From NCBI GenBank assembly GCA_051859245.1, contig JBHYGA010000004.1, positions 64,001-128,000 of the forward strand: 64,000 nt of DNA, written 5' to 3'. The number at the start of each line of letters is the position of its first letter. The first letter of the stretch is position 1. Shown here piece by piece: positions 28,962 to 63,735 of the stretch. The stretch is from Gemmatimonadaceae bacterium. Its GTDB lineage: Bacteria > Gemmatimonadota > Gemmatimonadetes > Gemmatimonadales > Gemmatimonadaceae. The position numbers were made by a program, and so were the translations under genes. The notes under the pieces are model-generated. The model saw only the letters and a program-made list of their open reading frames with translations, was not told the origin of the DNA and ran no database searches.

Positions 28962-28988
28962 TGTCGGGCGTATCTGACTTCGTGCGCA
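28962..28988 (+). promoter_or_regulatory. Candidate ECF promoter TGTCG-N18-CGCA
   Basis: tgtcg ggcgtatctgacttcgtg cgca, 56 nt before ATG 29045; same motif at 29631 and 63709. Confidence 0.6.
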
Positions 28989-29044
28989 GAGTGATGTGCG
29001 TACGAAACCCCGACGCGTAAAGCATCCACATTCAGGAGGTCAGC

Positions 29045-29533
29045 ATGTTGTTTCTTACCCTTACGTCGGCCGCGATGATCGCCGCCACGCCAATCGCTCC
29101 CGTTTCGCCAAGCGTGCCGGTGTGCGCTCCGGCCGCAACCGCCAGCGTTGCCAACCCACATCTGTTGAACGCACGTGCTGCCATCGCGAAGGGCGATGTT
29201 GCCACGGCGCGTCGCGAGTTCCGCTTTGCAACCATCGTGGATCGCGATGAAGGATGCCTGCCGGTCGAATCGTCCAACGGTCTTGCGTCGCTGCTTTTTG
29301 CGCAGTCGCAAAAGATTGAGGCTGCCGAAGTCATGCAGGAACTCGCCGACGAGGCTGCAAAAAGCGGTGATATCAATGTAGAAGCGCGTGCGCTGGTTTC
29401 GGCCACCTGGCTGCGCCTTGAAGCCGGTGACAAGCTTTCCGCCAAAGTCGGCGTGCGTCGTCTCCGCGAGATCGCAAAAGAGAACGGACTGACGTCCGAC
29501 ACGCGTGCATTGCTGAAGGAAAGCCTCGGATGA
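29045..29533 (+). CDS. Secreted all-helical (TPR-like) hypothetical protein
   Basis: AGGAGG RBS; signal peptide; helical repeats (AIAKGDVATARREF, GDINVEARAL). Confidence 0.75.
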   Translation: MLFLTLTSAAMIAATPIAPVSPSVPVCAPAATASVANPHLLNARAAIAKGDVATARREFRFATIVDRDEGCLPVESSNGLASLLFAQSQKIEAAEVMQELADEAAKSGDINVEARALVSATWLRLEAGDKLSAKVGVRRLREIAKENGLTSDTRALLKESLG

Positions 29534-29630
29534 CACGCAACTCACCAGACGCGGCGCGCTGAGCTGTCGCTCGCTTGCCGCGTCTGGTGCGCGAGGGTGT
29601 AGCACGCCGCGAAAGTCGTCGCCGCTTACG

Positions 29631-29657
29631 TGTCGTGATGTGCAGGTGAAGGACGCA
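29631..29657 (+). promoter_or_regulatory. Candidate ECF promoter TGTCG-N18-CGCA
   Basis: tgtcg tgatgtgcaggtgaagga cgca, upstream of the TPR gene at 29726. Confidence 0.6.
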
Positions 29658-29725
29658 TCTCTGGTTGAGTTCTGTAGTGCACCGATTCTTCGTTTATGTG
29701 CACGTCATTTCCGCCAGAGGTTTGC

Positions 29726-31318
29726 ATGTCTGCCCTATCACTCCTGCTCGCGTTCACGCTATCGGTCACACCCGTCGACAGCGTACCACTCTACAACAAT
29801 CTCGGCGATCACGAATACGCGATCAGCACGAGCACCCCACTGGCCCAGAAATATTTCAATCAGGGCCTGCGTCTCTACTACGCGTTTAATCACGCCGAAG
29901 CCATTCGTGCGTTCCGCGAAGCTCAGCGCCTTGATGCTGGCTGCGCCATGTGCTTCTGGGGTGAAGCGTTGTCGTGGGGACCGAACATCAACTTGCCGAT
30001 GGACTCGGCGTCGCATGTCTCCGCTTTCGCTGCGATTGCGCGAGCGCGAGAAGCGGTTGGACCGTACACCACCGCAACGGAACGCGCGCTGATCAAGGCG
30101 CTCTCGGCGCGATACGATAGCTCGTCGCAGCGCACACGCGCAGTACTCGATTCCGCGTACACGAGCGCCATGCGCGATCTGAACAATCGTCTGCCGAACG
30201 ACCCGGAGATCGCGGTGCTGTACGCCGAGTCCGAGATGACGCTGCGTCCGTGGAGCTACTGGACCCCGAAGCGCACCCTGCAGCCCGGTATTGCGCGTGC
30301 TGTGAAGCAGCTGGAGAAGGTGATGCGCCAGAACAACCGGCATCCGGGCGCCTGTCACTTTTTCATTCACGCGGTGGAAGCCGTACAGCCGGAGCGTGCG
30401 GTCGCGTGCGCGGAGCGCCTCGCGTCACTGATGCCGGGCGCAGGACATCTCGTGCATATGCCCGGACACATCTACATCCGGGTGGGTCGCTACGCCGATG
30501 CGATCAGCGCCAATGAACATGCGGTACACGCCGACGAATCGTACATTCGCGATCAGCGACCGGGCGTGGGCATGTACACGATGGGTTACTACCCGCACAA
30601 CTACGATTTCCTGGCGTTTGCCGCATCCATGATGGGCAACAAGGCGCAGTCGATTGCCGCAGCTGACAAGCTGCGCGATCTCACGTCTGTCGAAATGATG
30701 AGCGTGCCGGGGATGGGCTTCCTGCAGCACCATGGAACGCGCGCGCTGCAAATGCGTGTACGCTTCGGTGCGTGGGCTGAGATTCTACAGGCACCAGCAC
30801 CGGATACCGCGCATCACCACGCGCGCGCGATGTGGCACTACGCGCACGGTCGTGCACTGGTCTCCACTGGTCAGATTGACGCCGCCGCGAAAGACCTCGC
30901 CGCCGTGCGGCGCATCATGGAGCTGCCATTGCTGCGCGACATGCGTCTTGAGTTCAATACGTCGTACACTGTGCTGCGCGTGGCCGAACAAGTGCTCGCC
31001 GGTACGATTGCCTCAGCGCGCGGCCAACACAACGACGCCGTCGCCTTCCTCACGAACGCCGTAGAGTACGAGGACGCCTTGAACTACGGCGAACCGCCGG
31101 AATGGTCGGTGCCAACACGTCAGGATCTCGGCGCCGCGTTGATGGCGGCTAATCGGCACGTCGAGGCCGCGCGCGTGTTCCGCGCCGACCTCGAACGGTT
31201 TCCGAAGAATGCCGCGTCAGTGACTGGGCTGGAGCAGGCACTCCGCGCCCAGGGACGCGTGGCTGAAGCTGATCATGTGAAGAAAACGGGTGACCACGTC
31301 CGCCTCAGAGCCAAGTAA
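29726..31318 (+). CDS. Secreted TPR-repeat protein
   Basis: AGAGG RBS; AQKYFNQGL..YAFNHAEA, WGPNIN, HPGACHFFIHAVE, GHLVHMPGHIY, YYPHNYDF, YGEPPEW. Confidence 0.85.
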   Translation: MSALSLLLAFTLSVTPVDSVPLYNNLGDHEYAISTSTPLAQKYFNQGLRLYYAFNHAEAIRAFREAQRLDAGCAMCFWGEALSWGPNINLPMDSASHVSAFAAIARAREAVGPYTTATERALIKALSARYDSSSQRTRAVLDSAYTSAMRDLNNRLPNDPEIAVLYAESEMTLRPWSYWTPKRTLQPGIARAVKQLEKVMRQNNRHPGACHFFIHAVEAVQPERAVACAERLASLMPGAGHLVHMPGHIYIRVGRYADAISANEHAVHADESYIRDQRPGVGMYTMGYYPHNYDFLAFAASMMGNKAQSIAAADKLRDLTSVEMMSVPGMGFLQHHGTRALQMRVRFGAWAEILQAPAPDTAHHHARAMWHYAHGRALVSTGQIDAAAKDLAAVRRIMELPLLRDMRLEFNTSYTVLRVAEQVLAGTIASARGQHNDAVAFLTNAVEYEDALNYGEPPEWSVPTRQDLGAALMAANRHVEAARVFRADLERFPKNAASVTGLEQALRAQGRVAEADHVKKTGDHVRLRAK

Positions 31319-31329
31319 CGGTCGAGTGC

Positions 31330-33648
31330 TTATTTGAACCGCATGCCATTGGGTGCAACAAAACCTTTGGTCGGGACCACCGGGGGTTTGGTTGCAACAG
31401 GTCTGGACACGGGCTTCGTCGCTGATGGCGACGGGGCCCGTTTTTCCGATGGGGCACCGGCGCTGGCGTCGGCAGGCGCCTTGCTGCGCATGCCCCCGCC
31501 ATCGGTACGCATACTGAGCGCAATGCGATTTCTCGGCAGATCAATGCTTTGCACCGTGACCTTCACGCGCTGTCCAACTTTGACGGCGTCGTTCGGATCC
31601 TTGATGTAGCGATCCGACAACTGGCTCACATGCACGAGCCCGTCCTGATGCACACCAATATCCACGAACGCACCAAACGCCACGATATTGGTGACGACTC
31701 CTTCGAGCACCATGCCCGGCACGAGATCTTGCGGCTTCTGCACATCGTCGCGGAACGCAGGCGGTTCAAAGGCACTGCGTGGATCGCGACCGGGCTTGCG
31801 CAGCTCATCGGCAATGTCGACCAGCGTCGGCATGCCGACATCGTCAGAGACGTACTGCGTGAGCTTGAGCTGTCCAACCAGCGCTTCGTTGCCCACGATC
31901 GATGCGACATCAACACCAAGATCCTTTGCCATGCGCTCAACCAGCGCGTAGCGCTCGGGGTGGACACCGCTCGCATCAAGCGGGTGTGCACCTCCGCGAA
32001 CGCGGAGAAATCCTGCCGCCTGCTCAAACGCCTTGGCACCCAGACGCGGCACTTCCTTGAGTTCAGCGCGTGATCGCAACCCGCCGCGTGAATCACGCAG
32101 CGACACAATCGCCTGTGCCAGCGACGGGCCAATGCCCGCCACATACGAAAGCAACGCGGCAGATGCCGTATTCACTTCTACGCCAACACGATTCACACAT
32201 GACATCACCGTGTCATCCAGTCGCGATTTCAAACGCGGTTGATTGACATCATGCTGATACTGACCCACGCCGATGCTCTTGGGATCGATCTTCACGAGCT
32301 CCGCGAGAGGGTCCTGCAAGCGACGGGCGATGGACACGGCGCCGCGCAACGACACGTCGAGCTCCGGGAACTCCGCGCGCGCGATGTCGCTGGCCGAGTA
32401 TACGCTGGCGCCCGCTTCGCTCACCACCACCACCTGCGGTACGGGCGGGTCGAGTTCACGCAACGACGCTTTGACCAGCGTTTCGGTTTCACGACTGGCC
32501 GTGCCGTTGCCAACAGCAATCAGGTCTGGCGTAAATCGCTGGACGAGCGCGCGCACCGCACCGGCAAATCGATCTTCCTGATGCAAGTACAAGGTGTCGG
32601 TGTGCACCAACGCACCCGTTGCACTCACCACCGCAACTTTCACGCCGGTACGAAAGCCCGGATCGAATCCGATCACGCGCTTCTCGCCTGCGGGTGCAGA
32701 CAACAGCAGCTGTTCCAGATTGCGTCCAAAGATCACGATCGCTTCATCATCAGCGCGCGTCTTGAGCTCAACCCGAAGCTCCACTTCAATCGCAGAAGCA
32801 AGCAGTCGTTTGTACGCATCGGCGGCAACCAGCGTGAGCTGCGTGTGCGCACGGCGCTCCTCCGTCAGTTCGCGCGTCAGACGCCCCACAATCTGCTCGG
32901 CCGGTGCCACGACTTGCCACTGCAGTTCACCCTCGGCTTCGCCGCGACGAATCGCCAGCATGCGATGGCTCGGAATAGTGCCCAGCGCTTCTTCAAAGTC
33001 GAAATAGTCCTTGAAGCGCGACGCATCGCTGGCCTTGCCCGTCATCACCACGCTTTTCACGCGGCCCTGCGCACGCGTGAGCTCGCGCACCCAGCCGCGA
33101 ACCACCGCGTCTTCGGCCACCTGCTCCGACAAAATGTCGCGCGCGCCCTGCAGCGCCGCAGCTACGTCCGGCACTTCGTCGTTCACGAACGTGGCCGCGA
33201 GTGCGTCGACCGCCGCGTCATCAACGGTTCCGTTCCACACTTGCTCCGCCAGCGGACCAAGTCCGCGTTCGCGCGCAATCATGGCACGCGTGCGCCGCTT
33301 GGGCTTGAACGGGAGATACAAATCTTCAAGCGCCTGCTTGCTGTCGGCTTTCAGGATGGTTGCCCGCAACGCGTCATCCAGCTTGCCCTGCTCCTCGATG
33401 CTGCGCAGAATCGCGGCGCGGCGATCCTCCATTTCGGTGAGGTATGCCGATCGCTCCTGCACGTCGCGCAGCTGTACTTCATCGAGCCCACCGGTTGCCT
33501 CTTTGCGATATCGGGCGATGAAGGGCAGCGTATTGCCTTCATCGAACAGCGCCAGCGTGTCCCGGACCTGCGCCGGCGTCAGCGAGAGTTCACGGGCCAC
33601 GCGCGCGACGATATCGGCGGCGGTTGGGGACGAAAGGACAGCGGGCAT
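31330..33648 (-). CDS. tex: Tex family RNA-binding transcriptional accessory protein
   Basis: TLPFIARYRKEATG, DPGFRTG.K, GASVYSAS, RRLQDPLAELVKIDPKSIGVGQYQHD; C-terminal S1 domain. Confidence 0.96.
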   Translation of the reverse strand: MPAVLSSPTAADIVARVARELSLTPAQVRDTLALFDEGNTLPFIARYRKEATGGLDEVQLRDVQERSAYLTEMEDRRAAILRSIEEQGKLDDALRATILKADSKQALEDLYLPFKPKRRTRAMIARERGLGPLAEQVWNGTVDDAAVDALAATFVNDEVPDVAAALQGARDILSEQVAEDAVVRGWVRELTRAQGRVKSVVMTGKASDASRFKDYFDFEEALGTIPSHRMLAIRRGEAEGELQWQVVAPAEQIVGRLTRELTEERRAHTQLTLVAADAYKRLLASAIEVELRVELKTRADDEAIVIFGRNLEQLLLSAPAGEKRVIGFDPGFRTGVKVAVVSATGALVHTDTLYLHQEDRFAGAVRALVQRFTPDLIAVGNGTASRETETLVKASLRELDPPVPQVVVVSEAGASVYSASDIARAEFPELDVSLRGAVSIARRLQDPLAELVKIDPKSIGVGQYQHDVNQPRLKSRLDDTVMSCVNRVGVEVNTASAALLSYVAGIGPSLAQAIVSLRDSRGGLRSRAELKEVPRLGAKAFEQAAGFLRVRGGAHPLDASGVHPERYALVERMAKDLGVDVASIVGNEALVGQLKLTQYVSDDVGMPTLVDIADELRKPGRDPRSAFEPPAFRDDVQKPQDLVPGMVLEGVVTNIVAFGAFVDIGVHQDGLVHVSQLSDRYIKDPNDAVKVGQRVKVTVQSIDLPRNRIALSMRTDGGGMRSKAPADASAGAPSEKRAPSPSATKPVSRPVATKPPVVPTKGFVAPNGMRFK

Positions 33649-33818
33649 GGGGCGTCGTGCGTAGGCAAGTCGAGTGAAGCAGGCGCGAGCACAGCCAGAA
33701 CTGCGCGCGCGGTGGCGAGGGCGCATATTGTGCCGAGCCGCTCGCGCGGGCAACGGCTTGACTTCCCCCGCGCATCGATCTTACCACGTCCGTATCCCAC
33801 CTCCGGAGAGTCATCCGC

Positions 33819-36419
33819 ATGCAGTTCCCGAGTTCGCCGAGCGCCATTCGCGCCTCGCGTTTTCCGCGTTTTACCACCTCGGCCGCACTCGCGGCGATGT
33901 GCGCAGCGTTCGCTCTGCCGGTCGCCGAGTCGCACGCGCAACCGCCATCGCTGCTGCCACCGCCCACACAAACGGTGCGTGTCAATCGCGCGAACTGGAC
34001 GCTGGCGGATCGTTTCAGCGTCGCGAACATGCGCAATCTCGCCTTCAGCACATCAGTGGCGCCTCGCTGGCTCGGTGAAACGGATTCGATGTTCTACAAC
34101 TGGCGCGACAAGAATGGCGGCACGTTCTACCTCGTAGTACCGACCACGCGTACCAAGCGTCCGCTCTTCGATCATGTGAAGCTCGCCGAAGAACTCTCGC
34201 GTTTGCATCGCAAACCGTACGAACCGGGAAAGTTGCCATTCACCACGCTCAACTTCACGAAAGACCACAAGAAGATTCGTTTCCAGGTGGATTCCACGCG
34301 CTACGAGTGGAATCTGGCCGCAGAAACGCTCTCCAGCCTTGGGATCTGGCGTCGCGACTCGGTAGCCGTGGACGAAGAACGCGAGCAGGGCGGTGGTGGT
34401 GGCGGACAAGGTGGACCCGGCGGCGCTCCCGAGTTCCGCAACTTTTCGCCCGACAGCACCGCGTTCGCCTTCGCGCGCGACCACAACCTGTTCGTGGTGG
34501 ACGTGAAAACCGGCGACACCGTGCAGCTGAGCACCGACGGTGCGAAGGACTACAGCTTTGGTTTTCGCGATACATCGACCACCAATCAACAACAGCAGCA
34601 GGACGACGATCAGCAGGACAATCAGAACACGCAGGGACAGCAAAGCCGCAGCCGCGATCCACGCGTGCGCGCCAGCGTGAGCTGGTCGCCGGATTCGCGT
34701 TCGTTCACCGTGCAGCGCAACGATTCGCGCAAAGTGAAGGAATTGTATTTGGTGAACGTACTGTCGAACCCGCGGCCAACGCTGAGCTCGTACAAGTACT
34801 CCATGCCGGGCGAAGCAGATGTGAGCCAGCAGGAGCTGTTCGTGTACACGCGCGGCGAGAAGACGCTGCGCAAGGTGCCCGTGGACAAGTGGAAAGATCA
34901 GCGCGTGAGCAACGTGCACTGGCCTGTCAAATCGGAAACGTTCCGACTGGTGCGACGCGATCGGTTGCAGCGCAACATGGAGCTGGTGGAAGTGAACACG
35001 GCCACGTTGGCCATGAAAACGCTGCTGACCGAGTCCGTTGAGAATGCGTTTCTTGAAATTCAGCCGGTGCGTTACGTCACGCGTGGTGGCGATTTTGTCT
35101 GGTTCTCCGAGCGCAGCGGCTGGGGTCACTACTATCTGTACAGTCATGATGGTACGTACAAGCGTCCGCTGACCAGCGGCATGTGGCGCGCCGAGAATGT
35201 GGTGGAGCAGGACACGGTGCGCGGCACGATGTTCATCAGTGGTGTAGGACGCGAGCCGGGACCGAACCCGTACCTGCGTCATACCTACCGCATGAACGGT
35301 GACGGTTCCGGCTTCACGCATGTCACGCCTGGCGCCTACGATCACGCAACGCGCGTGTCACCCACCAAGCGATTCATTGTTGACAACTACTCGCGCTCCG
35401 ACACGATTCCCGTTGCCGTCGTGCGCGATGCGGCCACGGGTCGCGTGGTGATGCCGCTGGAAGTAATGGATGACTCGCGCATTCGTGAAATGGGCTGGTC
35501 GCCACCAGTGCCGTTCACCACCAAAGCCGCCGATGGAACCACCGACATCTACGGCAACATGTGGAAGCCCGCCGACTTTGATTCCACCAAGAAGTATCCG
35601 ATCATTGCGTACGTGTATCCGGGTCCGCAAACTGAACAGGTCACAAGCGGATTCAGCACCGGCGGTGTGATGCAGCAGTTGGCGCAGCTGGGCTTTGTCG
35701 TGATTCAGATTGGAAACCGTGGTGGCACACCGCAGCGCTCCAACGCCTATCACAGCTTCGGCTACTACAACCTGCGCGACTACGCGTTGGCTGACAAAAA
35801 GACGGGTATCGAGCAGCTCGCCGCACGCCATTCATTCATCGACATTGATCGCGTGGGCATTTACGGTCACTCCGGTGGTGGTTTCCTTACGGCGGCCGCA
35901 CTCATGTTGCCGCCGTACAATGATTTCTTCAAAGTGGGTGTGTCGTCGGCCGGCAATCACGACAACAACATTTACAATCAGAACTGGAGTGAGCAGCACC
36001 ATGGACTGCGCGTGATCACCGAGCGTCGCGACACCACCCAGCGTGGTCGCACGAATGGCGGGAACGGTGGCGCGCGCACGCAGACGCAGACGCAGGGACG
36101 CAACGGCGCACGTGTCGTCGCAGTGGATGATTCCACGCGCTACGAAATCCGCGTACCCACGAACGCGGAGCTCGCGGAGAACCTGAAAGGCAAGCTGCTG
36201 CTCGTGCACGGCGACATGGACAACAACGTGCACCCCGGCAATACCATTCGTCTCGTCGACGCGCTCATCAAAGCCAACAAGCGCTTCGACATGATGATGC
36301 TGCCGGGCCAAGCGCACGGCTTCGGGCCCATGCAGCCGTACTTCAATCGCATGCTCATGGAATACTTCGCCGAGCACCTCATGGGCGATTACTACCGCGC
36401 CACGGCCGAGATTCGCTAA
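33819..36419 (+). CDS. S9B dipeptidyl-peptidase IV-like peptidase, secreted
   Basis: DPP IV N-terminal propeller; YPGP, GHSGGG, HGDMDNNVHP, QAHGF. Confidence 0.92.
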   Translation: MQFPSSPSAIRASRFPRFTTSAALAAMCAAFALPVAESHAQPPSLLPPPTQTVRVNRANWTLADRFSVANMRNLAFSTSVAPRWLGETDSMFYNWRDKNGGTFYLVVPTTRTKRPLFDHVKLAEELSRLHRKPYEPGKLPFTTLNFTKDHKKIRFQVDSTRYEWNLAAETLSSLGIWRRDSVAVDEEREQGGGGGGQGGPGGAPEFRNFSPDSTAFAFARDHNLFVVDVKTGDTVQLSTDGAKDYSFGFRDTSTTNQQQQQDDDQQDNQNTQGQQSRSRDPRVRASVSWSPDSRSFTVQRNDSRKVKELYLVNVLSNPRPTLSSYKYSMPGEADVSQQELFVYTRGEKTLRKVPVDKWKDQRVSNVHWPVKSETFRLVRRDRLQRNMELVEVNTATLAMKTLLTESVENAFLEIQPVRYVTRGGDFVWFSERSGWGHYYLYSHDGTYKRPLTSGMWRAENVVEQDTVRGTMFISGVGREPGPNPYLRHTYRMNGDGSGFTHVTPGAYDHATRVSPTKRFIVDNYSRSDTIPVAVVRDAATGRVVMPLEVMDDSRIREMGWSPPVPFTTKAADGTTDIYGNMWKPADFDSTKKYPIIAYVYPGPQTEQVTSGFSTGGVMQQLAQLGFVVIQIGNRGGTPQRSNAYHSFGYYNLRDYALADKKTGIEQLAARHSFIDIDRVGIYGHSGGGFLTAAALMLPPYNDFFKVGVSSAGNHDNNIYNQNWSEQHHGLRVITERRDTTQRGRTNGGNGGARTQTQTQGRNGARVVAVDDSTRYEIRVPTNAELAENLKGKLLLVHGDMDNNVHPGNTIRLVDALIKANKRFDMMMLPGQAHGFGPMQPYFNRMLMEYFAEHLMGDYYRATAEIR

Positions 36420-36446
36420 CGAGGCCAGTGCGCCAGGTCACACACG

Positions 36447-36483
36447 AACGCGGCCGGTTGTCTGATAGACAACCGGCCGCGTT
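36447..36483 (+). terminator. Intrinsic terminator hairpin
   Basis: Perfect 17-bp stem aacgcggccggttgtct-gat-agacaaccggccgcgtt about 28 nt after the stop; only a short T tail. Confidence 0.7.
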
Positions 36484-39772: not shown

Positions 39773-41914
39773 ATGGTTCCGTCCGCTCTGCAGACGCTAG
39801 CTCACGCACGCGCCGCCCGCAGCCGCATTTACGCGGCGCTCCTGATGTCCGCAGCCGCGACGGCGTTACCGGCGGGTCTGCGTGCGCAGGACCGCCTGCC
39901 CTTCATGCCGGGCTACGCGCAGTTTCAGAAAATGCGCGGCGAGATCCCGAACGCGGTGCGTTCCGGCGCCATCACGCCAGTGTGGGAAGCAGACGGTCGC
40001 AGCTTCACCTACACCGCCGACGGCAAGCGCATGCGCTTTGACATCGCGTCGCGGTCGGCATCAGAAGCTCCGGCTGCCGGCGCGAATGGTGGTGCACGTG
40101 GCCCGGGTGGCCCGCGGGTGGAACGCGGACGTCAGGCCGAAGTCGCCTACACAGCGGACAGTGCACGCCGCGCGGTGCACCGTGATCGCAATCTGTACGT
40201 GCTCAATAAAGACGGAAGCGATGAACGCGCCGTGACGACCGATGGCAGCGCAGACAAGCGCATCAAGTACGGCACCGCCAGCTGGGTGTACGGCGAAGAA
40301 CTGGCACAAACCACCGCGATGTGGTGGTCACCTGACGGCAGCAAACTCGCGTACTATCGTTTTGATGAATCGCCGGTGCAGGACTATTTCCTGCAGCTGT
40401 CGCAGACAAAGATTCAGAGCACCATGGATACCGAAGCGTATCCCAAAGCGGGCAGCGCCAATCCGGTGGTTGATCTGTTCGTGTACGATGTTGCCACGAA
40501 CAAAAGTGTGCGCATTGATGTGCGCAGTGGCGCACCGTTTACCGACAGCACGGTTGGCCACTACGTCTATCGTGTGGGTTGGACACCAGACGGCAGCGCG
40601 ATCACGTTCAATCGCACCAACCGCCGGCAGAACGTGATGGAGTTTACAAGCTGCAGTCCAGCGAGCGGCGCGTGCCGTGCGATCGTGCGCGAAGAGTGGC
40701 TCGCCAGCTGGACCGACAATCGCCCCGACATTCGCTGGCTGGCCGACAATCAGCGTTTCATCTGGACATCAGAGCGCAACGGCTTCAAGAACTACTATCT
40801 GTATCACATGGACGGGCGGTTGCTCTCAACGCTCACGTCACACCCGTTCGAAGTGGCCGGCATTACGCGCGTGGATGAAAAAGCCGGACAGATGTGGTAC
40901 ATGGCGCGCAGCGGTGACAATCATATGAAGCTGCAGTTGCACCGCGTGTCGCTCTCGGGCAAGAACGACGTGCGTCTCACTGATCCGGCGTTCAATCACA
41001 CGGTCAATGTTTCGCCCGACGGCAAATACTTTGTTGATGTCGCACAAACGCACAACACGCCACCGGTGTCATCTGTTCGTGATGCCAACGGCAAGCTGGT
41101 CAAAGAACTGCTGCAAAGTGATGTGAGCAAAGCCACGGCACTCGGACTCAAGCCGGTGGAAATGTTCACCTTCAAAGCGGCTGACGGCGTGACCGAACTG
41201 CACGGCATGTTGCACAAGCCGAGCAACTTTGATCCGAGCAAGAAATATCCGGTGCTCGTGAGTGTGTACGGCGGCCCCGCCACCAACGGTGCACGCGAAA
41301 CGTTCAGTACACCCAACGCACTCACCGAATACGGTTTCCTTGTGCTCACGCTCGATGCACGCAGCGCGGCCGGTCGTGGCAAGAAATTCCTCGACGCGAT
41401 CTACGAAAGACTCGGCACCGTGGAAATTGACGACTTCGCGGCCGGCGTTCGCGAAATCGCCAAGCGTCCGTACGTTGATGGATCACGCGTTGGCGTGTTC
41501 GGCACATCGTACGGCGGTTACGCATCGGCCATGGCCCTGCTGCGTCACCCCGATGTATTTCACGCGGCCGCAGCCAGCAGCTCGGTCACCGATTGGCGTC
41601 ACTACGACACCATCTACACCGAACGCTACATGTACACGCCGCAGGCCAACGCGGCCGGTTACGATGCCGGTTCGGCGATGACCTACGCCGACAAGCTCAA
41701 AGGCCGTCTCATGATTTTCTACGGCACGGCCGACAACAACGTGCACCCGTCGAACAGCATGCAGCTCATCCAGGCCCTGCAGCGCGCCGGCAAGAGCTTC
41801 GATGTGCAGGTGGGACCGGATGTTGGCCACGCGGGACTGTCGCAGCCGCGCATGATGGAGTTCTTTATTGAACACCTCGTGCTGCCGCGCGCCGGCAACA
41901 CCGCCAGCAACTAG
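39773..41914 (+). CDS. S9B dipeptidyl-peptidase IV family peptidase, secreted
   Basis: WVYGEEL, WWSPDG, YPKAG, VYGGP, GTSYGG, DW..YDTIYTERYM, GTADNNVH. Confidence 0.93.
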   Translation: MVPSALQTLAHARAARSRIYAALLMSAAATALPAGLRAQDRLPFMPGYAQFQKMRGEIPNAVRSGAITPVWEADGRSFTYTADGKRMRFDIASRSASEAPAAGANGGARGPGGPRVERGRQAEVAYTADSARRAVHRDRNLYVLNKDGSDERAVTTDGSADKRIKYGTASWVYGEELAQTTAMWWSPDGSKLAYYRFDESPVQDYFLQLSQTKIQSTMDTEAYPKAGSANPVVDLFVYDVATNKSVRIDVRSGAPFTDSTVGHYVYRVGWTPDGSAITFNRTNRRQNVMEFTSCSPASGACRAIVREEWLASWTDNRPDIRWLADNQRFIWTSERNGFKNYYLYHMDGRLLSTLTSHPFEVAGITRVDEKAGQMWYMARSGDNHMKLQLHRVSLSGKNDVRLTDPAFNHTVNVSPDGKYFVDVAQTHNTPPVSSVRDANGKLVKELLQSDVSKATALGLKPVEMFTFKAADGVTELHGMLHKPSNFDPSKKYPVLVSVYGGPATNGARETFSTPNALTEYGFLVLTLDARSAAGRGKKFLDAIYERLGTVEIDDFAAGVREIAKRPYVDGSRVGVFGTSYGGYASAMALLRHPDVFHAAAASSSVTDWRHYDTIYTERYMYTPQANAAGYDAGSAMTYADKLKGRLMIFYGTADNNVHPSNSMQLIQALQRAGKSFDVQVGPDVGHAGLSQPRMMEFFIEHLVLPRAGNTASN

Positions 41915-41963
41915 AAAACGAGACCCGTGTGACCGCCGGACGATCTCAGGGGTTATCACTGCC

Positions 41964-42518
41964 ATGACCCCCACCGATGCCCAGATCGTTCGGCGCGTCC
42001 TGGGCGGTGACACGGAGGCCTTCCGGGGCCTCGTGGACCGCTACCACGACGACGCCGTGCGATACGCCACCCACCTGCTCGGCGACCACGCCGAAGCGGA
42101 AGACGCCGTTCAGGACACGTTCCTGCGCGCCTACCGCTACCTGGCGAGCTACCAGGAGCAGGACAAGTTTCGGGCGTGGCTCTGGCGCATTCTCGTGAAT
42201 CGCTGCCGTACGCGCCTCTCCGACCGTGCGCGACGCCCGGAACCGCGCGATTCGGCCGTCATCACCCAGCTCGTCGACGCCAACGCCGCCGCCCCTGACC
42301 ACGACCTCGACCGCGCCTTTTTGCGCGACGAGCTCGCTCAGGCGCTCGCCACCCTGCCCGCGGATCAACGCGAGGCGGTGGTGTTGCATTTCACGGAGGG
42401 GCTCTCCTATCCGGAAATGTCCGCCGTGACCGGCACCGGCGTGTCGGCGCTCAAAATGCGGGTCCATCGGGCCTGCGATCGACTGCGTACTCTGCTCTCG
42501 GATGTGATCCATGGCTGA
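41964..42518 (+). CDS. ECF RNA polymerase sigma factor
   Basis: GDTEAF..LVDRY, EAEDAVQDTFLRAY, FRAWLWRILVN; region 4 LP.DQREA..L...EGLSY.EM. Confidence 0.93.
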   Translation: MTPTDAQIVRRVLGGDTEAFRGLVDRYHDDAVRYATHLLGDHAEAEDAVQDTFLRAYRYLASYQEQDKFRAWLWRILVNRCRTRLSDRARRPEPRDSAVITQLVDANAAAPDHDLDRAFLRDELAQALATLPADQREAVVLHFTEGLSYPEMSAVTGTGVSALKMRVHRACDRLRTLLSDVIHG

Positions 42519-48172: not shown

Positions 48173-48820
48173 GTGAATCCAAACACTCCCCTCGCGCGGT
48201 CGCATCTGACATTGGTGACCACGACTGACTCAACTGTTGCGGCGTCCACCGCGCCGCTGTTGCCACGCGTCGCCAACGGCGATGAGTTTGCCGTGCGCGA
48301 AGTGGTCGCGCGTTACGGCCCGCTGATCTGGTCACTCGTGCGTCGCTGGTCACCAGACACAAATGACGCCGAAGACGCCGTGCAGGATGTGTTCGTTGAT
48401 CTGTGGCGAAGCGCCGCGCGATTTGACGCAACACGATCTACGGAAGCCGGTTTTGTTGCCATGGTGACCCGTCGACGTTTGATCGACCGACTGCGCAAGC
48501 GGCAACGCGCCATCGAGTTTGAACCACTCTCTGAAAACGTCGATATGGCGGTGGATCAGGAACCTGATATCGATCGCGGCGTGCGCATTGAACGCGCTCG
48601 TGAGGCGTTGCGCGCGCTGCCGCCAGCGCAGCGCACCATGCTCGAGCTCTCACTGCTGCACGGCCGCACACACGATGAAATCGCGCGCGAGACCAACACG
48701 CCGCTCGGCACGGTCAAGTCACACATTCGACGCGGACTGCAACGCGCGCGTGATCTGCTCGCCAACGATTCAAGTAGCAATGCAACATCAGTACGCGATG
48801 TGGACGGTGATCCGTTATGA
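48173..48820 (+). CDS. ECF sigma factor, SigK-like
   Basis: DAEDAVQDVFVDLWRSAARFD, RRRLIDRLR, G.TH.EIA.....PLGTVKSHIRRGL. Start is GTG 48173 (possibly leaderless) or 48215. Confidence 0.93.
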   Translation: MNPNTPLARSHLTLVTTTDSTVAASTAPLLPRVANGDEFAVREVVARYGPLIWSLVRRWSPDTNDAEDAVQDVFVDLWRSAARFDATRSTEAGFVAMVTRRRLIDRLRKRQRAIEFEPLSENVDMAVDQEPDIDRGVRIERAREALRALPPAQRTMLELSLLHGRTHDEIARETNTPLGTVKSHIRRGLQRARDLLANDSSSNATSVRDVDGDPL

Positions 48821-52006: not shown

Positions 52007-52083
52007 GTTTGCATGGCTTGAGCGAGGTGCAAAACGAAAGGTGCCAGTTGTACACGAACCTTCGGAACAACTCAGCGGTCACT

Positions 52084-56616: not shown

Positions 56617-56692
56617 TTATCGGGAGAGCCCTATCCAAGCACGGGCGTTTCCATCCGGACGCCCGTCCCCCCGCGTGTTGGAGCACCCTTCC

Positions 56693-57895: not shown

Positions 57896-58143
57896 CCAGC
57901 GAGCCACATACCAGCCGACCGTGGCGATGGCTTGCTGCGCTCCCCGCCACGGGCATTGTCATGGCCCCGTTCGTTGCCAACCGCGTCGAGCCGTTTGTAC
58001 TCGGCCTGCCGTTTTTGCTTGCGTTCATTACCGGCTGGGTGTTGGTCACCTCAGCGGTGATGGCGCTGATTTTCATACTCGACGAGCGCGCGGACGCACG
58101 AGCGAATACACTCGCTGACCAAGGCGTCAACCACCGCGCATGA
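57892..58143 (+). CDS. DUF3311 small membrane protein
   Basis: PF.ANRVEP.VLGLPF...W motif; translationally coupled to both neighbours. Confidence 0.85.
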   Translation: MTSEPHTSRPWRWLAALPATGIVMAPFVANRVEPFVLGLPFLLAFITGWVLVTSAVMALIFILDERADARANTLADQGVNHRA

Positions 58144-59591
58144 TCATCTCACTCTCGCTGCTCGGCTTCACACTGTTGCTCGCACTCGGCCTCTGCGTCA
58201 GCAAAGCGCGCAACATGTCGCTCGAACAGTGGAGTGTAGGCGGACGCGGCTTTGGCACGATGCTCGTGTTCCTGCTGCTCGCCGGCGAGATCTACACCAC
58301 GTTCACGTTTCTCGGCGGCAGCGGCTGGGCATACGGAAAAGGTGCGCCCGCGTTTTACATCATTGCGTATGGTTCCATTGCGTACATCATGTCGTACTGG
58401 CTGCTGCCGGCCATCTGGCGACGCGCGACCGAATGGCGCGTCGTCTCGCAAGCCGAGTTCTTTGCCAAAGCCTACAACTCACGCGCTCTCGGCAATGTCG
58501 TGGCGATTGTCAGCGTGATTGCCCTGATTCCCTATCTCGTCCTGCAACTCAAGGGACTCGGCATCATTGTTTCCGAGTCGTCGTACGGTGCAATCAGCAC
58601 CACAATGGCCATCTGGATTGGTACCGCCGCGGTGGTCACGTACGTGGTACTCGCCGGCATTCACGGCTCCGCCATGACCGCCGCCATCAAAGACGTGCTC
58701 GTGCTCGTTGTGGTCGTAGGACTTGGCATTGCACTGCCTGTGTCGTTGCACGGCGGAATCGGCCCGATGTTTGAACAGATCGCGCGCGAACGTCCTGAGT
58801 TTCTCACGCTGCCGGCGCAGGGGCTGTCACCAACCTGGTTCATGAGCACAGTGCTGCTCACCGTGTGCGGATTCTACATGTGGCCGCATACGTTTGGCTC
58901 AGTTTTTTCGGCAAAAGACGCGCGTGTTTTCAAGCGCAATGCGGCGCTGATGCCGCTGTATCAACTCATCTTGCTGTTTGTGTTTTTCGTGGGTTTTGCC
59001 GCACTGCTGAGTGTGCCGGGTCTGGAAGGGAGCGACGCCGATCTGGCGCTACTTCGCATCACACGCGAGACCTACGGACCGTTTGTCGTGGGCATCGTAG
59101 GCTCCGCAGGCTTGCTCACTGCGCTTGTCCCTGGATCCATGATTCTCATGGCCACGGCCACACTGCTGGCACGCATGCTGCGGCCTACCGTGAACGGCGC
59201 CGGCGGCGCATCCATCACATTTGCGCGCCTGCTCGTACCGGTCGTGGCGGCAGTTGCCTTGTTCTTCACGTTTCGTGGCGGCGACACACTGGTCACGTTG
59301 CTGCTGATGGGCTACGCACTCGTCACGCAGCTGTTTCCGGCGCTGATCTCCGCGTTGTGGCCGAAAGCGCGCGTCACCGCAGCGGGCGCGATCAGCGGAA
59401 TACTTGTGGGCGTGGCCGTGGTTGGCATTGTAACGCTATCGGGTACCACCGTGGCAACACTGCTGCCGAGTTGGCCTGTGTATGTGACTGACCTGAACAT
59501 CGGCGCCTTGGCGCTGCTGCTCAACATCGTCACCATGTTTGTGGTCAGTCGCGTTGCGGGGCGGCGCGTACTCGCCGCGCAGCCCGCGTAA
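58140..59591 (+). CDS. Sodium:solute symporter family protein
   Basis: W.VGGRGFG, GEIYTTFTFLGGSGWAY, GFYMWPH; about 13 TM segments. Confidence 0.93.
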   Translation: MIISLSLLGFTLLLALGLCVSKARNMSLEQWSVGGRGFGTMLVFLLLAGEIYTTFTFLGGSGWAYGKGAPAFYIIAYGSIAYIMSYWLLPAIWRRATEWRVVSQAEFFAKAYNSRALGNVVAIVSVIALIPYLVLQLKGLGIIVSESSYGAISTTMAIWIGTAAVVTYVVLAGIHGSAMTAAIKDVLVLVVVVGLGIALPVSLHGGIGPMFEQIARERPEFLTLPAQGLSPTWFMSTVLLTVCGFYMWPHTFGSVFSAKDARVFKRNAALMPLYQLILLFVFFVGFAALLSVPGLEGSDADLALLRITRETYGPFVVGIVGSAGLLTALVPGSMILMATATLLARMLRPTVNGAGGASITFARLLVPVVAAVALFFTFRGGDTLVTLLLMGYALVTQLFPALISALWPKARVTAAGAISGILVGVAVVGIVTLSGTTVATLLPSWPVYVTDLNIGALALLLNIVTMFVVSRVAGRRVLAAQPA

Positions 59592-60209
59592 CTAGAAAAT
59601 TCGTTCCGCTTCTTCCGCGCGAAACAACACCGCATCACGCTCGAGCAACGCGCGGCTGCCTTCGTCGAGTGGTTCACGGCGATTGGACGGCGCACCAACG
59701 TCTACGAACAGCGTTTTGAGCGCCGCCCGCTGCGCTTCGTCGTACGAGAGCGCTTGCGGCGTCACAGCCAGCGCGCGCAGCCACGCACCCACGATCGGAT
59801 GTGCCAACACACTGCTGCGTCCTTCCGCCGTGGACTCAGCGACCGCACGTGCCAGCTCAGCGAGACACTGACTCACGGCAACAAGCGCCTTACGCTCCAC
59901 TTCGTTGGCCGGTTCGCCAGCCAACAGTGCCCGCGCTGCCTGCGCGCGGGCGCGCAGCAGACTCATGTCGTCAAAGAAGCGCAGCAGTTCATTCACACGG
60001 CGCACAGACGCGCGTTGCGCCACGCGCTGCTGCATCAACCGGAAACCCAGAAAGCCAACCGTAAGCAGTGATGCGATCAACAGCGCCCGCGTGGCGCCCT
60101 GAATTGCGCCCGTGGCCATGCCCTGCATAAGCGGCAGCACCACGCTGATGGTCGCGCTGAGCAACAGCAGGCGATAAAGCGGGCGCGACTTTCGTTGTGT
60201 GATGGCCAT
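59592..60209 (-). CDS. Hypothetical membrane protein
   Basis: Two N-terminal hydrophobic segments followed by a helical domain; fills the gap downstream of the kinase. Confidence 0.65.
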   Translation of the reverse strand: MAITQRKSRPLYRLLLLSATISVVLPLMQGMATGAIQGATRALLIASLLTVGFLGFRLMQQRVAQRASVRRVNELLRFFDDMSLLRARAQAARALLAGEPANEVERKALVAVSQCLAELARAVAESTAEGRSSVLAHPIVGAWLRALAVTPQALSYDEAQRAALKTLFVDVGAPSNRREPLDEGSRALLERDAVLFRAEEAERIF

Positions 60210-60315
60210 GACGAGGCGGGACGAGATAGAGGCCCGCCGAAGCGCGGGCTTTCCGGAAGGACGACCCAGCGGTGTGGCGCGGAACAGCAGCGCATCACGC
60301 GACCGGCCCGCTTCG

Positions 60316-63060
60316 TTACGGAATCAGTCTCGCGACGTCCGCATCAGCGCGGATCGGGGAAAAGTCTCGTACCGTTTCGCTCGGAAACCATGGCCAGCGC
60401 GTGTACCCCTCGCGCTGCGCTTGCTCCAGCAGGGATGCGGCACGCGCCGATTCGCCGCGAACGGCCGCCATACGCGCGAGGAACGTGGTGTATTCTCCGC
60501 GCGCATATCTCGGCGGGGCCCCGAGCGCTCGCTGCGCTTCCGCGTGGCGATTCAGTCGCGTGAGCACAACGGCGTGCCAGCCACGGTAGCGCAAACGATC
60601 GGGAAAGAGCGTAACCAGCTCACGATAGATGCGCTCCGCTTCACGATCATTGCCCAGTTGGTACTCCGCGTTGCCAAGCCACGCCAGCACGCCACGGTCT
60701 TCCGGTTCGAGTGCCTGACGTTCACGCAGCCATCGCACCGCTTTGCTAAAGTATGCGTTAGCCCGCGCCGTATCCTGCTTCTCCAATCGCGCTTCTCCGG
60801 CCACCACGAGTGCCGCGCCGTACGACCAGTACACATCGGCTGGCAATCGGGAGAGTGAATCGAGCAGCAAATCGACCTGCGCAAGTTTTCCACCGGCAAC
60901 AAGGGCGCGTACGGCAAAGATTTCGGCCGCTCGGTTCTGCGGATAGCGTCGACGCATCTGCGTGGCGGCGACGAACTCGGCATCATGCTGGCCAAGCAGG
61001 TGATGCGCGTGCGCAATTTGCGTCCAGTACGACGACCAGCCGCGCATGAGTCCGCGATCCGGATCAACCCCTTCCAGGGCCGCGAGTGCTTCTTTCGGCC
61101 GATTCATGGCCAGTGCGTGATGCGCCACGCTGTATTCAGCGCGCAATCCGGGCGAAATCGAAGCCGCTGTTCGAATGGCCTGCAGCGCGCGCTCACCATC
61201 ACTCTGCAGCAGCGCACTGAGATGTGTGGTCATGGCGTCGGCGTACGGCGTGAGTCGTGTTCGCCGTGCTTGCAGCATACTCACGAGCGTATCCGTCCAT
61301 TCGAGTTCGCCGGTATTCCAATGTCCCATCGCGGCAAAAATGAGCGGCGCCAGAAACGTCGTGTCGCGTGCGTACGCTGCACGTAACTCGGTTGCGGCTG
61401 CGCTGTACTGCTGGCCAGTGTACAGCTCAAGGCCACGATCGAACGAGCGATACGCTTCGTACGTTGGTGGGACCTGCCCGATCGCTGATGGCGCAAGCAC
61501 ACGATCGTCGAGCTGCAAGGCCACAAAACCTTGCAATCGATCGCGCATCATTCGCATGAGCAACGAAAGCGAATCGCGATGTGCTTCGAGTGCGGGAAGC
61601 GCACCAAGGCTGCGGCGCTGTCGTGCGTCATTCACCGCCAGCTGCACACGAATTGAGTCGCCCACCAGATAGTAACTGCCACTCACGACCGTTGCAGCCG
61701 CTGCTTCACGCGCCAGCGCGGTGACGACATCAAATGATACGGCGTCATCAGATTGCTCGGCGGCTGAACGCACGCTCGCCCACGGTACCACGGTCACCGC
61801 ACCGGTCTCTTCCAGCCCTTGCGTGAGCCAATCGCTGGCCAATCGCCCCCACACGGTGAGTGTGGAGTCGCCCGTTTCATTCTGCAGTGGCGCGACAGCC
61901 ACCGGCATGGGCAATCGCTCATTGCTCACTACAGGCACATCGCGCGATTGCCACCACGCCGACGCGCCCGCACCGATCAGCGCCAATGTACCAACCGCAA
62001 ACAGCACGCGCGAGCGTGAACGCGGCGGCACCTGCACCTGCGTGACCGCGTGCGATGCGCCACTCATCGCGTCGAGTGCGGATACAATCTCCCGCGCCGA
62101 TGACGGTCGATCCGCCGCGTCAATCGACAGACATCGGTTGATCAGATCTGCCAGCGTGACCGGAACCGTGCGTTCATCGAGTGCACCGCGCTCCGCGATG
62201 CCCGCGAGTGTTTCTGTCGCGACGAGTCCCCACGCATACACATCGGAGCGTTCGTCAACGCGTTGACCCGACGCCTGCTCCGGCGACATATACCCGGGCG
62301 TGCCAATCGCGTGACCCGCGTCTGTTTCGTGACGAAGGCGCGCACCACCCTGAGATGCCGCGCGCTTGGCCACACCAAAGTCGAGCAGATACGCATGCCC
62401 GCCCGCACAAAGAATATTGTCGGGCTTGAGATCGCGATGAATCACGCCGCGGCTGTGCGAGTGCGCGAGCGCATCCGCTACATCGCGCAACAGTGGAATC
62501 CCCTCACTCATCGGCAATGCGCCGCGCGCGTGCAACCGCTCGCGCAGCGTCTCGCCGTCGATGTGTGGCATCACGTAGTACAGCAGTCCGTCCGCATCGC
62601 CGGAATCAATCAGCGCGAGAATATGCGGATGTGACAGTCGCGCCGCGATGCGCACTTCCTCGTGGAAGCGACGCGCGCCAAACGCACGTGCAACCACCGG
62701 GTCGAGCACCTTGATCACAACGTTGCGATCGTGCTTGAGTTCACGCGCCAGAAACACCGTCGCCATGCCGCCGCGACCGAGTGTTCGTGAGATCACGTAG
62801 CGGTCATGCAGCGCCGGCCGCAGACGCTCAAGCAATGTGTCGCCCTGCGGCACGGGTTGTGCCACCTGTTTGTCCAGCACACCGAAGGGTTCATCGTGCG
62901 CCGCGAGCATGCGCAGCAAATCATCACGCAACGATTGATCATGCGACGTACGTTCGGTCACCCACGCGGACCGCTCGACCGGATCGAGATCAATCGCGTG
63001 ATCAAACAGGTCAGCGAGCTGGCGCCAACGATTCGGCGCGTCGCCGTCTTGCGCAGCCAC
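60316..63060 (-). CDS. Hanks-type Ser/Thr protein kinase with TM, TolB-N/FlgO-like and TPR extracytoplasmic domains
   Basis: LGRGGMATVF, VVIK, HRDLKPDN, DFG, GTPGYMSPEQ; TM; VAVAPLQNETGD; TPRs. GTG start 2 nt after the sigma stop. Confidence 0.93.
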   Translation of the reverse strand: MAAQDGDAPNRWRQLADLFDHAIDLDPVERSAWVTERTSHDQSLRDDLLRMLAAHDEPFGVLDKQVAQPVPQGDTLLERLRPALHDRYVISRTLGRGGMATVFLARELKHDRNVVIKVLDPVVARAFGARRFHEEVRIAARLSHPHILALIDSGDADGLLYYVMPHIDGETLRERLHARGALPMSEGIPLLRDVADALAHSHSRGVIHRDLKPDNILCAGGHAYLLDFGVAKRAASQGGARLRHETDAGHAIGTPGYMSPEQASGQRVDERSDVYAWGLVATETLAGIAERGALDERTVPVTLADLINRCLSIDAADRPSSAREIVSALDAMSGASHAVTQVQVPPRSRSRVLFAVGTLALIGAGASAWWQSRDVPVVSNERLPMPVAVAPLQNETGDSTLTVWGRLASDWLTQGLEETGAVTVVPWASVRSAAEQSDDAVSFDVVTALAREAAAATVVSGSYYLVGDSIRVQLAVNDARQRRSLGALPALEAHRDSLSLLMRMMRDRLQGFVALQLDDRVLAPSAIGQVPPTYEAYRSFDRGLELYTGQQYSAAATELRAAYARDTTFLAPLIFAAMGHWNTGELEWTDTLVSMLQARRTRLTPYADAMTTHLSALLQSDGERALQAIRTAASISPGLRAEYSVAHHALAMNRPKEALAALEGVDPDRGLMRGWSSYWTQIAHAHHLLGQHDAEFVAATQMRRRYPQNRAAEIFAVRALVAGGKLAQVDLLLDSLSRLPADVYWSYGAALVVAGEARLEKQDTARANAYFSKAVRWLRERQALEPEDRGVLAWLGNAEYQLGNDREAERIYRELVTLFPDRLRYRGWHAVVLTRLNRHAEAQRALGAPPRYARGEYTTFLARMAAVRGESARAASLLEQAQREGYTRWPWFPSETVRDFSPIRADADVARLIP

Positions 63061-63062
63061 GG

Positions 63063-63665
63063 TCAGCCGCCTTCGCGCCCGTGTTCGGTCGCGTTTCCTG
63101 CCGTGAGCGAGGCGTGCAACCACGCACGCGCTTTCGCCCAGTCGCGCTGCACTGTACGCGTTGTCACGTTGAGCGCCTGCGCGATCTCTTCTTCCGTGCA
63201 GCCGGCAAAGAATCGCAGCTCCACCACCTGACGCAGACGCTCATCCTGCGCACCGAGGAGCGTGAGTGCGTCATCAAGCGCAATCAGTTCATCCGGCGAC
63301 ACTGCAGGCTCTCCATCGGGAACAGTCAGGAACGGTTCAGCCTTGTGCGCCGTGCGTCGACGTCGAGCATTGTCAACGAGGACCTGTCGCATGGCACGGG
63401 CCGCGATCGCCAGAAAGTGCGCGCGGTTGGCGCTCTCGGGCGCTGATCGTGCAAACAGCTTGAGGTACGCTTCATGCACGAGCGCGGTTGGCTGCAACGT
63501 GTGACCAGGCGCTTCGCGACCGAGCAAACGATTGGCAATCTGTCGCAGCTCGTCGTACACGAGCGGGTACAGTTCTTCGCGCGCGTGATGATCTCCCTGC
63601 CGTACTCGGTCAAGGAGAAGCGTGACGTGACCGCTGGCCGCAGATTCGTCGGGGAGTGACGGCAT
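63063..63665 (-). CDS. ECF sigma factor, TIGR02999/ECF43 type
   Basis: VYDELRQIA, HTLQPTALVHEAY, HFLAIAARAMRQVLVD.AR, VELRFFAG, TVQRDWAKARAWL. Confidence 0.93.
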   Translation of the reverse strand: MPSLPDESAASGHVTLLLDRVRQGDHHAREELYPLVYDELRQIANRLLGREAPGHTLQPTALVHEAYLKLFARSAPESANRAHFLAIAARAMRQVLVDNARRRRTAHKAEPFLTVPDGEPAVSPDELIALDDALTLLGAQDERLRQVVELRFFAGCTEEEIAQALNVTTRTVQRDWAKARAWLHASLTAGNATEHGREGG

Positions 63666-63708
63666 GGCATCGGGGGCGACGTGTCTGAACCGTTCAGTCG
63701 GGGCGACA

Positions 63709-63735
63709 TGTCGGGATTTCCGGACACGAACCGCA
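63709..63735 (+). promoter_or_regulatory. Candidate ECF promoter TGTCG-N18-CGCA
   Basis: tgtcg ggatttccggacacgaac cgca in the divergent region next to the sigma gene; TGTCG is half of the palindrome CGACATGTCG. Confidence 0.6.

Follow-up and report, generated by a model that had tools for sequence, protein, structure and literature searches.

Two tetratricopeptide repeat (TPR) protein genes of a Gemmatimonadaceae bacterium, TPR1 and TPR2, are preceded by a two-box element, TGTCG-N18-CGCA, which recurs upstream of homologous genes in other genera. The two genes are found in a window of 64,000 nucleotides (nt), corresponding to positions 64,001 to 128,000 of the forward strand of contig JBHYGA010000004.1 (assembly GCA_051859245.1). 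The same window encodes, divergently from TPR1, an extracytoplasmic function (ECF) sigma factor of the ECF43 type and a Hanks-type Ser/Thr kinase. Judged by its conservation, this sequence upstream of TPR1, TPR2 and their homologs is genuine and promoter-like. Overall, we consider it probable that TGTCG-N18-CGCA provides the -35 and -10 boxes of a promoter through which the ECF43-type sigma factor encoded at 63063-63665 drives a small regulon; we infer from sequence both that the element is a promoter and that this sigma factor reads it. TPR1, TPR2 and an operon that begins with an alpha/beta hydrolase gene and is located elsewhere in the genome are most likely its core targets. Hereafter, G000 designates the genome itself (4.70 Mb, 62% G+C), other G numbers designate other genomes, and L numbers designate loci.

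The two-box element is conserved upstream of TPR genes

Sixty other genera of the same family were searched for homologs of the TPR proteins, which were found at ~35% identity in 29 genomes. The resulting family set contains 30 TPR loci, or 29 when our own locus is left out. Exact motifs were counted on the coding strand, between 100 and 400 nt ahead of a conserved residue of the TPR homologs, residue 35. Six of the 29 loci carry the motif (L011, L016, L017, L020, L025 and L027), at an offset of 163-264 nt from this residue, against 0.11 expected (Poisson 2e-9, a value that is overstated since the relatives are not independent). The 30 loci, our own included, amount to 127 kb, in which only three other exact matches are observed on the two strands.

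The controls behaved differently. Seven other patterns shared by upstream regions of the window were each found at 0/29 loci, and the same result was obtained in these family upstream windows for TGTCG-N17-CGCA, for the N19 spacing, for the reversed orientation and for the CGTA variant. One-base variants of the motif gave 0 or 1 of 29, most of them 0, the TGGCG form being seen once (L024); one-mismatch forms are not enriched before TPR homologs, L024 being the only case among the 30 loci. A wider set comprised 80 TPR-homolog loci from all phyla, 22 from Gemmatimonadota and 58 from other phyla. The motif is present in the upstream window of four of them (L032, L036, L051 and L096), all in Gemmatimonadota (4/22 versus 0/58), with the sites of L032 and L096 being uncertain because they are far from the likely start or possibly within a coding frame. 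The reversed orientation was again absent (0/80).

Between loci of different genera, the spacers cannot be aligned and the two boxes are invariant. Hence, boxes, N18 spacing and orientation are fixed around a free spacer, as in a two-box promoter of the ECF type. A preliminary description of the window had noticed the element before both TPR paralogs and had named conservation upstream of orthologs as a check. This part is confirmed: orientation and spacing are kept in homologs of other genera, at the six family loci.

In a tree of the TPR proteins, the motif-bearing genes occupy at least four separate places. The clade of TPR2 contains 11 TPR genes (support 99), and an exact match is found in the 400 nt ahead of four of them (the window's own copy, wTPR2, L027, L051 and L144). 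Other members of the clade show the motif at -347 (L096), further upstream and ahead of a fused hydrolase (L023), or in a one-mismatch form (L024). In particular, the TPR2 motif is kept before the orthologs in L051 and in the same-genus genome G053 (98% complete, 370 contigs; L027/L143, protein 71% identical), with a spacer that is not alignable. G018 has two TPR copies, L025 and L144, each preceded by the motif; one of the five second copies that were fetched was positive.

Consensus and geometry of the sites

Seventeen sites were collected by hand through an exact TGTCG match, so that GTC is found in 17/17 by construction. A purine precedes TGTCG in 15/17 sites, and A never follows it. The base after CGCA is T in nine sites, G in five, A in three and C in none (hand tally), and a (G)ATGAG or TGTAG sequence is often observed 6-10 nt beyond CGCA. 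The distance from the end of the motif to the likely start codon is 34-68 nt in G000 and 30-118 nt in relatives. For ECF43 sigma factors, the ECF classification 2.0 predicts, from its proteobacterial ECF43 set, GTC in the -35 box and CAG in the -10 box (PMC7826278 supplement). This group prediction appears to fit TGTCG and to fit CGCA(G) partly. The motif described here is longer and better defined (purine-TGTCG, N18, then CGCA with T, G or A after it), and it can be linked to particular families of targets.

These features also bear on the idea that the conserved element is the operator of a DNA-binding regulator and not a promoter. TGTCG and CGCA are loosely inverted (TGCG on the other strand), the extra conserved (G)ATGAG or TGTAG follows CGCA at ~6-10 nt in many sites, and the site before a gene for a helical protein (see below) overlaps a second conserved block, CGTATCTGAC; these points speak for an operator. 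On the opposite side, the element has a strict orientation to the gene, with no reversed copy upstream of the TPR homologs of either set, and a rigid spacing, N17 and N19 being absent, around a spacer that varies freely. In addition, the sites are located tens of nt before start codons, the ECF43 group prediction is matched in part and a sigma gene is adjacent. We therefore regard an operator as improbable.

Sites in the window and the level expected by chance

The three exact sites and the CGTA variant listed in the preliminary description are present at the coordinates given there (Table 1). The TPR2 motif ends 38 nt before ATG 29696, or 68 nt before the alternative ATG 29726. The sigma gene and TPR1 diverge from a gap of 104 nt that contains the TPR1 motif, with 63709-63713 as the proposed -35 box and 63732-63735 as the proposed -10 box. 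The by-eye survey of upstream regions had correctly retained the three upstream sites, which are real, and had overlooked three further exact matches, at 33342 (+), 36007 (-) and 40521 (-), each antisense within a gene.

Table 1. Positions of the motif sites and of the genes discussed in the text. Coordinates are those of the window unless a contig of G000 is given.
Feature	Position	Strand	Remarks
TGTCG-N18-CGCA before TPR1	63709-63735	+	exact match; ends 34 nt before ATG 63770
TGTCG-N18-CGCA before TPR2	29631-29657	+	exact match; followed by CGCATC and GGTTGAG
TGTCG-N18-CGCA before the helical-protein gene	28962-28988	+	exact match; ends 56 nt before ATG 29045
TGTCG-N18-CGTA variant before the DUF4399 gene	551-577	-	ends 38 nt before likely start ATG 512
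TGTCG-N18-CGCA before the alpha/beta hydrolase gene	G000:C4:272508-272534	-	exact match; ~52 nt before signal-peptide start
ECF43-type sigma factor, 200 residues	63063-63665	-	PF07638 Sigma70_ECF, E 5e-47, residues 13-187
Hanks-type Ser/Thr kinase, 935 residues	60316-63123	-	+1 gene of the sigma gene, overlapping its 3' end
TPR1, 578 residues, 5' part	63770-64000, continuing to window-equivalent 65506	+	L001:3770-5506
TPR2, 540 residues	29696-31318	+	paralog of TPR1; alternative start 29726 gives a signal-like N-terminus
Helical protein, 162 residues	29045-29533	+	N-terminus signal-like; gene immediately precedes TPR2; may be a target

Around the TPR1 site, an inverted repeat, CTGAAC-C-GTTCAG, is found at 63685-63697, between the sigma start and the motif. 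Moreover, the -35 box is contained in a perfect palindrome, CGACATGTCG (63704-63713), so that TGTCG can be read on both strands. This palindromic region (63685-63713) could serve for the binding of a regulator, or provide a -35 box used in both directions. The palindrome CGACATGTCG is absent at the orthologous locus L036.

The six exact matches of the window compare with 2.94 expected, and six or more were obtained in 8/100 shuffles; the figure of a single match expected by chance in 64 kb, put forward earlier, was thus too low. For the CGTA variant, one match is observed and 0.64 expected. Because the motif had been picked after viewing the sequences, all patterns made of a 5-mer and a 4-mer separated by N14-20 were counted. 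Eight of them, this motif included, are common to at least three of the 44 upstream regions of the window, and the same post-hoc count in 32 other 44-gene windows of contig C1 has a mean of 8.3. Genome-wide, the exact motif has 184 matches. Spacings of N12, N15, N21 and N24 give similar counts, which is a codon-period effect. No intergenic enrichment of the exact motif is seen across the genome, with 20/184 matches (10.9%) between genes for an intergenic fraction of 9.7%, as estimated with a crude caller based on open reading frames. A position-weight scan of the genome gave 11 matches at 18 bits or more, six of them intergenic; three of these six are training sites, so that the enrichment is modest and partly circular.

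Since counts within the window and the genome are at chance level, the argument that three sites in promoter position could not arise by chance fails, and the genome-wide check proposed earlier gave no intergenic enrichment. Within-window statistics are not a valid ground for believing in the motif, and its signal is significant only across genomes. These counts are those that recurrence by chance of a GC-rich 9-base pattern in a 62% G+C genome would produce, and chance is the best reading of the site before the DUF4399 gene, of the three intragenic sites, and of the sites before a PAP2-like gene and a pyridoxal-phosphate (PLP) decarboxylase gene (see below). For TPR1, TPR2 and the hydrolase, conservation across genera, with negative controls, is far beyond chance. 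The spacers of the TPR1 and TPR2 loci, moreover, cannot be aligned, which would be expected had these loci been transferred recently. Taken for the element as a whole, coincidence is very unlikely.

An ECF43-type sigma factor with an adjacent kinase

The sigma factor scores 205 bits against TIGR02999, for a cut-off of 126. It reads GHTLQPTALVHEAY, with QPTA at residues 58-61, placing T60 in region 2.2. The ECF43 consensus at this position is QTTA (PMC13147305), and a Sigma70_ECF domain (PF07638) replaces the separate sigma-2 and sigma-4 Pfam domains in this group (PMC7826278 supplement). Hence, the hallmarks of ECF43 are found together here: the PF07638 domain, the TIGR02999 match, a kinase as the +1 gene, and a region 2.2 in which DAED is replaced by uncharged residues of the Ser/Thr kind, with a Thr. 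This agrees with the phosphorylation-activated type assigned in the preliminary description. We propose T60 as the phospho-acceptor of the sigma factor.

The kinase domain spans residues 109-309 (Pkinase, E 1e-39). TPR matches at residues 628-847 delineate a C-terminal TPR sensor region, and a single hydrophobic segment is seen by eye near residues 383-401. This agrees with the ECF43 pattern, in which the +1 kinase has one membrane helix and TPR repeats outside the cytoplasm. Full-length orthologs of the kinase (42-45% identity) are encoded in L036, L142, L150 and L151. Besides the kinase and TPR1, the sigma gene neighbours a gene for a 205-residue membrane-like protein without Pfam or NCBIfam match, which has not been retained in L149-L151. 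ECF43 sigma genes are described as having no cognate anti-sigma gene next to them; around our sigma gene, no anti-sigma domain was found, the 205-residue neighbour having no domain match.

Two weaker PF07638 frames are also present in the window, at 41868-42518 (+; G000:C4:105979-106482, E 1e-9) and at about 48449-48760 (+; G000:C4:112449-112760, E 3e-5). These frames possibly encode further sigma factors of the ECF type.

The motif accompanies one group of sigma/kinase pairs

A sigma/kinase pair is located within 3 kb of eight motif-bearing loci. The arrangement is divergent in G000, L016, L025, L036 and L023/L172, TPR, sigma and kinase genes follow one another on one strand in L011 and L017/L142, and the genes are convergent in L020/L135. 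L036 corresponds to the orthologous divergent locus, with a sigma factor 61% identical to ours and the motif at the same position and in the same orientation; the L036 and TPR1 sites share TGTCGGGA...CCGCAA. The position and orientation of the TPR1 motif are also found in L011, L016, L017, L020 and L025.

In a tree of 33 sigma factors, from which the G031 sigma was left out, the seven sigmas of motif loci fall into two clades (support 95/90 and 100/98), neither of which is part of a 22-row clade (90/88) that contains most other paralogs; four further rows make up a separate clade. At L003 (G034, an unpublished genome), the TPR gene adjoins a sigma gene of another clade and has no motif; this is the single control of this kind. 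Of 20 other sigma/kinase loci that were fetched (L123-L141), L139 only has a promoter-like motif, and L134 has one elsewhere. In G019, the TPR-adjacent sigma is the single ECF43-type sigma at E<=1e-15. Finally, TPR loci that adjoin a kinase gene without a sigma gene (L005, L033, L043 and L076) carry the motif in 0/4 cases; these loci suggest a link between TPR protein and kinase that is independent of the sigma factor.

Several observations weigh against the sigma factor 63063-63665 as the reader of a regulon promoter. In addition to the missing intergenic enrichment described above, 23 of the 29 family TPR loci are devoid of the motif, and the predicted CAG is found at -10 in 5/17 sites, those with G after CGCA, CGCAT being more frequent. 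L149, L150 and L151, which contain orthologous sigma/kinase pairs with no TPR gene nearby, show no exact motif within ~6 kb. G053 keeps the TPR2 motif, yet orthologs of the sigma factor, of the kinase sensor and of TPR1 were not found in its assembly. Furthermore, G000 encodes seven strong ECF43-type (PF07638) sigma factors whose region-4 recognition helices look alike by eye, and promoter specificity is possibly shared among them. Exact motifs also precede operons of other sigma paralogs, at G000:C4:272508 and at L139 in G056.

Such data could be explained if the element were a real ECF-type promoter read by another sigma factor, or by several of the seven paralogs, with a link to 63063-63665 that is positional only. 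The published ECF43 prediction is made at the level of the group, and the -35 sequence of ECF42, TGTCGAT, is similar (PMC7826278 supplement), which would also suit this explanation. The pairing at eight motif loci, the separation of the seven sigmas from most paralogs, the TPR-adjacent L003 sigma of another clade without a motif, the isolated case of L139 and the single sigma of G019 argue against it, and we hold it to be rather unlikely. The original assignment of the motif to this sigma factor is thus retained for its association with the sigma/kinase pair and for the grouping of the associated sigmas; its weak side lies in the seven paralogs and in the motif kept by G053.

Many ECF sigma factors are autoregulated. 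In G000, there is no motif on the sigma gene's own strand in the 104-nt gap, and in L149-L151 none is present upstream of the sigma gene, suggesting that the sigma factor is not generally autoregulated. Where TPR, sigma and kinase genes are co-directional, the motif is ahead of the sigma operon (L011 and L142).

Two observations concern the sigma genes themselves. Exact motifs occur inside sigma genes, on their coding strand and upstream of the kinase gene, in the orthologous loci L025 (3494, +) and L036 (3381, -), at different codon positions; the window sigma gene has no exact match. They could be due to chance or be an internal kinase promoter. In L149 and L151 (genomes G036 and G051), CTATATT is found 15-25 nt before the sigma start codon, and the G000 sigma gene is without it. 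This sequence may be a housekeeping -10 box with a very short leader.

TPR proteins and the helical protein

The genome contains no other paralog of TPR1 than TPR2, and the reverse is true of TPR2 (29% identity between the two, E 5e-58). They belong to a family with at least 591 relatives in many phyla, for which Pfam and NCBIfam return TPR repeats only. TPR1 has an N-terminal hydrophobic segment, and its AlphaFold model is an all-alpha TPR superhelix (mean confidence, pLDDT, 85). PDB searches by sequence and fold with the TPR protein retrieved only generic TPR scaffolds (TM-scores 0.2-0.42), and an atlas search retrieved only unnamed TPR clusters. The match of PA4667 (LbcA) was confined to one TPR stretch. 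Hydrophobic segments at the N-termini, together with a lipobox-like LTAGC seen by eye in the L003 homolog, lead us to predict that the TPR targets are exported.

The helical protein has a weak TPR_16 match (E 6e-4), which is below cut-off, and no NCBIfam match. Its homologs (53-57% identity) are encoded upstream of TPR2 in L027/L143 and L051. Its membership of the regulon, as proposed in the preliminary description, is upheld by the site kept in L051 and weakened by same-genus G053, where both TGTCG and CGCA are lost. The spacer block CGTATCTGAC is kept in the three genomes (window 28969-28978; L143:6021-6030 in G053; L051:21-30). Together with an upstream TGAAT, it could form a separate promoter-like element, TGAAT-N19-TATCTG.

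An alpha/beta hydrolase operon and other candidate targets

Outside the window, an exact motif precedes an alpha/beta hydrolase gene (G000:C4:271502-272530) that heads a same-strand run of genes (C4:264917-272530). The run continues with a beta-helix protein, a second ECF43-type sigma factor and a second kinase. Besides G000, hydrolase homologs have an upstream motif at 3/9 family loci (L168 in G049, L172 in G031 and L176 in G032). Moreover, hydrolase genes are fused or adjacent to TPR genes at L014/L171, L023/L172, L047, L085 and L173: in G031, one frame of 857 residues encodes both hydrolase and TPR, and in G023 two hydrolase genes and a TPR gene stand in a row. The pairing is seen in Gemmatimonadota, in a metagenome-assembled genome of Nitrospiraceae and in a Mesorhizobium genome. 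The motif before hydrolase homologs, together with this fusion and adjacency, marks the hydrolase as a second conserved candidate target, with a functional tie to the TPR protein.

Other candidates were rejected or found no support. The CGTA variant had been noted before a DUF4399 gene, for which we chose the likely start (ATG 512) by eye from the signal peptide. Ortholog loci were searched within 260 nt upstream for TGTC-N17-21-CG[CT]A or GTCG-N16-20-CG[CT]A, and the motif was kept in 0/10 of them, including same-genus G053; DUF4399 is thus removed from the regulon. The PAP2-like gene (G000:C1:393846; motif kept in 0/4 homolog loci) and the PLP-decarboxylase gene (G000:C6:175069; 0/2 close orthologs) are likewise unsupported. 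A distant PLP-decarboxylase paralog locus, L167, has a motif match 740 nt upstream.

One more exact motif, L178:2504-2530 (-), which corresponds to G000:C4:1074504-1074530, is located 180 nt before a gene of the beta-lactamase family (PF00144). It continues as CGCATC and GATGAGG.

A model for the circuit and comparison with known systems

By analogy with EcfP/PknT and EcfK/PknS, on which the mechanism is modelled, the membrane Ser/Thr kinase would use its C-terminal TPR region to sense a cue from outside the cytoplasm. It would then phosphorylate T60 of the sigma factor, in the QPTA that occupies the position of the acidic core-binding patch of other sigmas. The sigma factor so charged would bind core RNA polymerase, and transcription would begin a few bases past CGCA. 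Its targets would be TPR1, which diverges from the sigma gene, and TPR2, at a distance of 34 kb. The helical-protein gene before TPR2 would probably be included and, outside the window, so would the operon that begins with the alpha/beta hydrolase gene.

EcfP/PknT of Vibrio parahaemolyticus, also of ECF43, resembles the present pair in several respects (PMC8999054; PMC8103513). Region 2.2 lacks the acidic DAED and contains a Thr (STTA in EcfP, QPTA here), and a Hanks-type membrane kinase gene is beside the sigma gene. In the EcfP model the sigma factor is inactive until phosphorylated, as would be the case here by analogy. In our locus, no anti-sigma domain is detected next to the sigma factor, where one neighbour, the 205-residue protein, has no domain match. 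The two systems differ in their phylum, Gemmatimonadota in our case, and in their targets, TPR proteins and an alpha/beta hydrolase here versus polymyxin-resistance genes there. EcfK/PknS of Xanthomonas citri (ECF43) likewise combines a sigma factor with a membrane-spanning kinase whose extracytoplasmic region is large, and has a conserved Thr in region 2.2 (T51 in EcfK, T60 here) (PMC13147305). However, EcfK retains one acidic residue (QATE), requires a second phosphosite in the linker (T106) and controls a type VI secretion system (PMC13147305). Genes for such a system were not seen in the gene calls around our sigma gene.

The circuit could be more than a linear path from kinase to sigma factor to targets, in the form of a sigma cascade, of feedback on the sensor, or of both; we consider this possible, if somewhat doubtful. 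In a cascade, one phospho-activated sigma factor might switch on the second sigma/kinase pair through the G000:C4:264917-272530 operon. In a feedback loop, the TPR/hydrolase pair might work as a module of the envelope, binding the kinase at its TPR sensor and taking the role that an anti-sigma factor has in ordinary ECF systems. The latter idea comes from the recurrence of TPR genes beside kinases without a sigma gene and from their fusion or adjacency to hydrolase genes in several phyla.

According to the reviews, work on kinase-activated ECF43 sigma factors has been confined to a few Proteobacteria, and the review texts give no target promoters for other phyla. Our search found no literature on a Gemmatimonadetes ECF sigma factor with a threonine kinase, subscription journals being largely uncovered by it. 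The system would represent a circuit of a kind already known, now charted in a phylum that has received little study. It provides a promoter candidate, purine-TGTCG-N18-CGCA, tied to one group of ECF43-type sigma factors in Gemmatimonadota and to two linked target families, a widespread TPR protein of ~540 residues and an alpha/beta hydrolase. It would offer a small regulon open to direct test, and a way into the function of a large TPR family that is uncharacterised.

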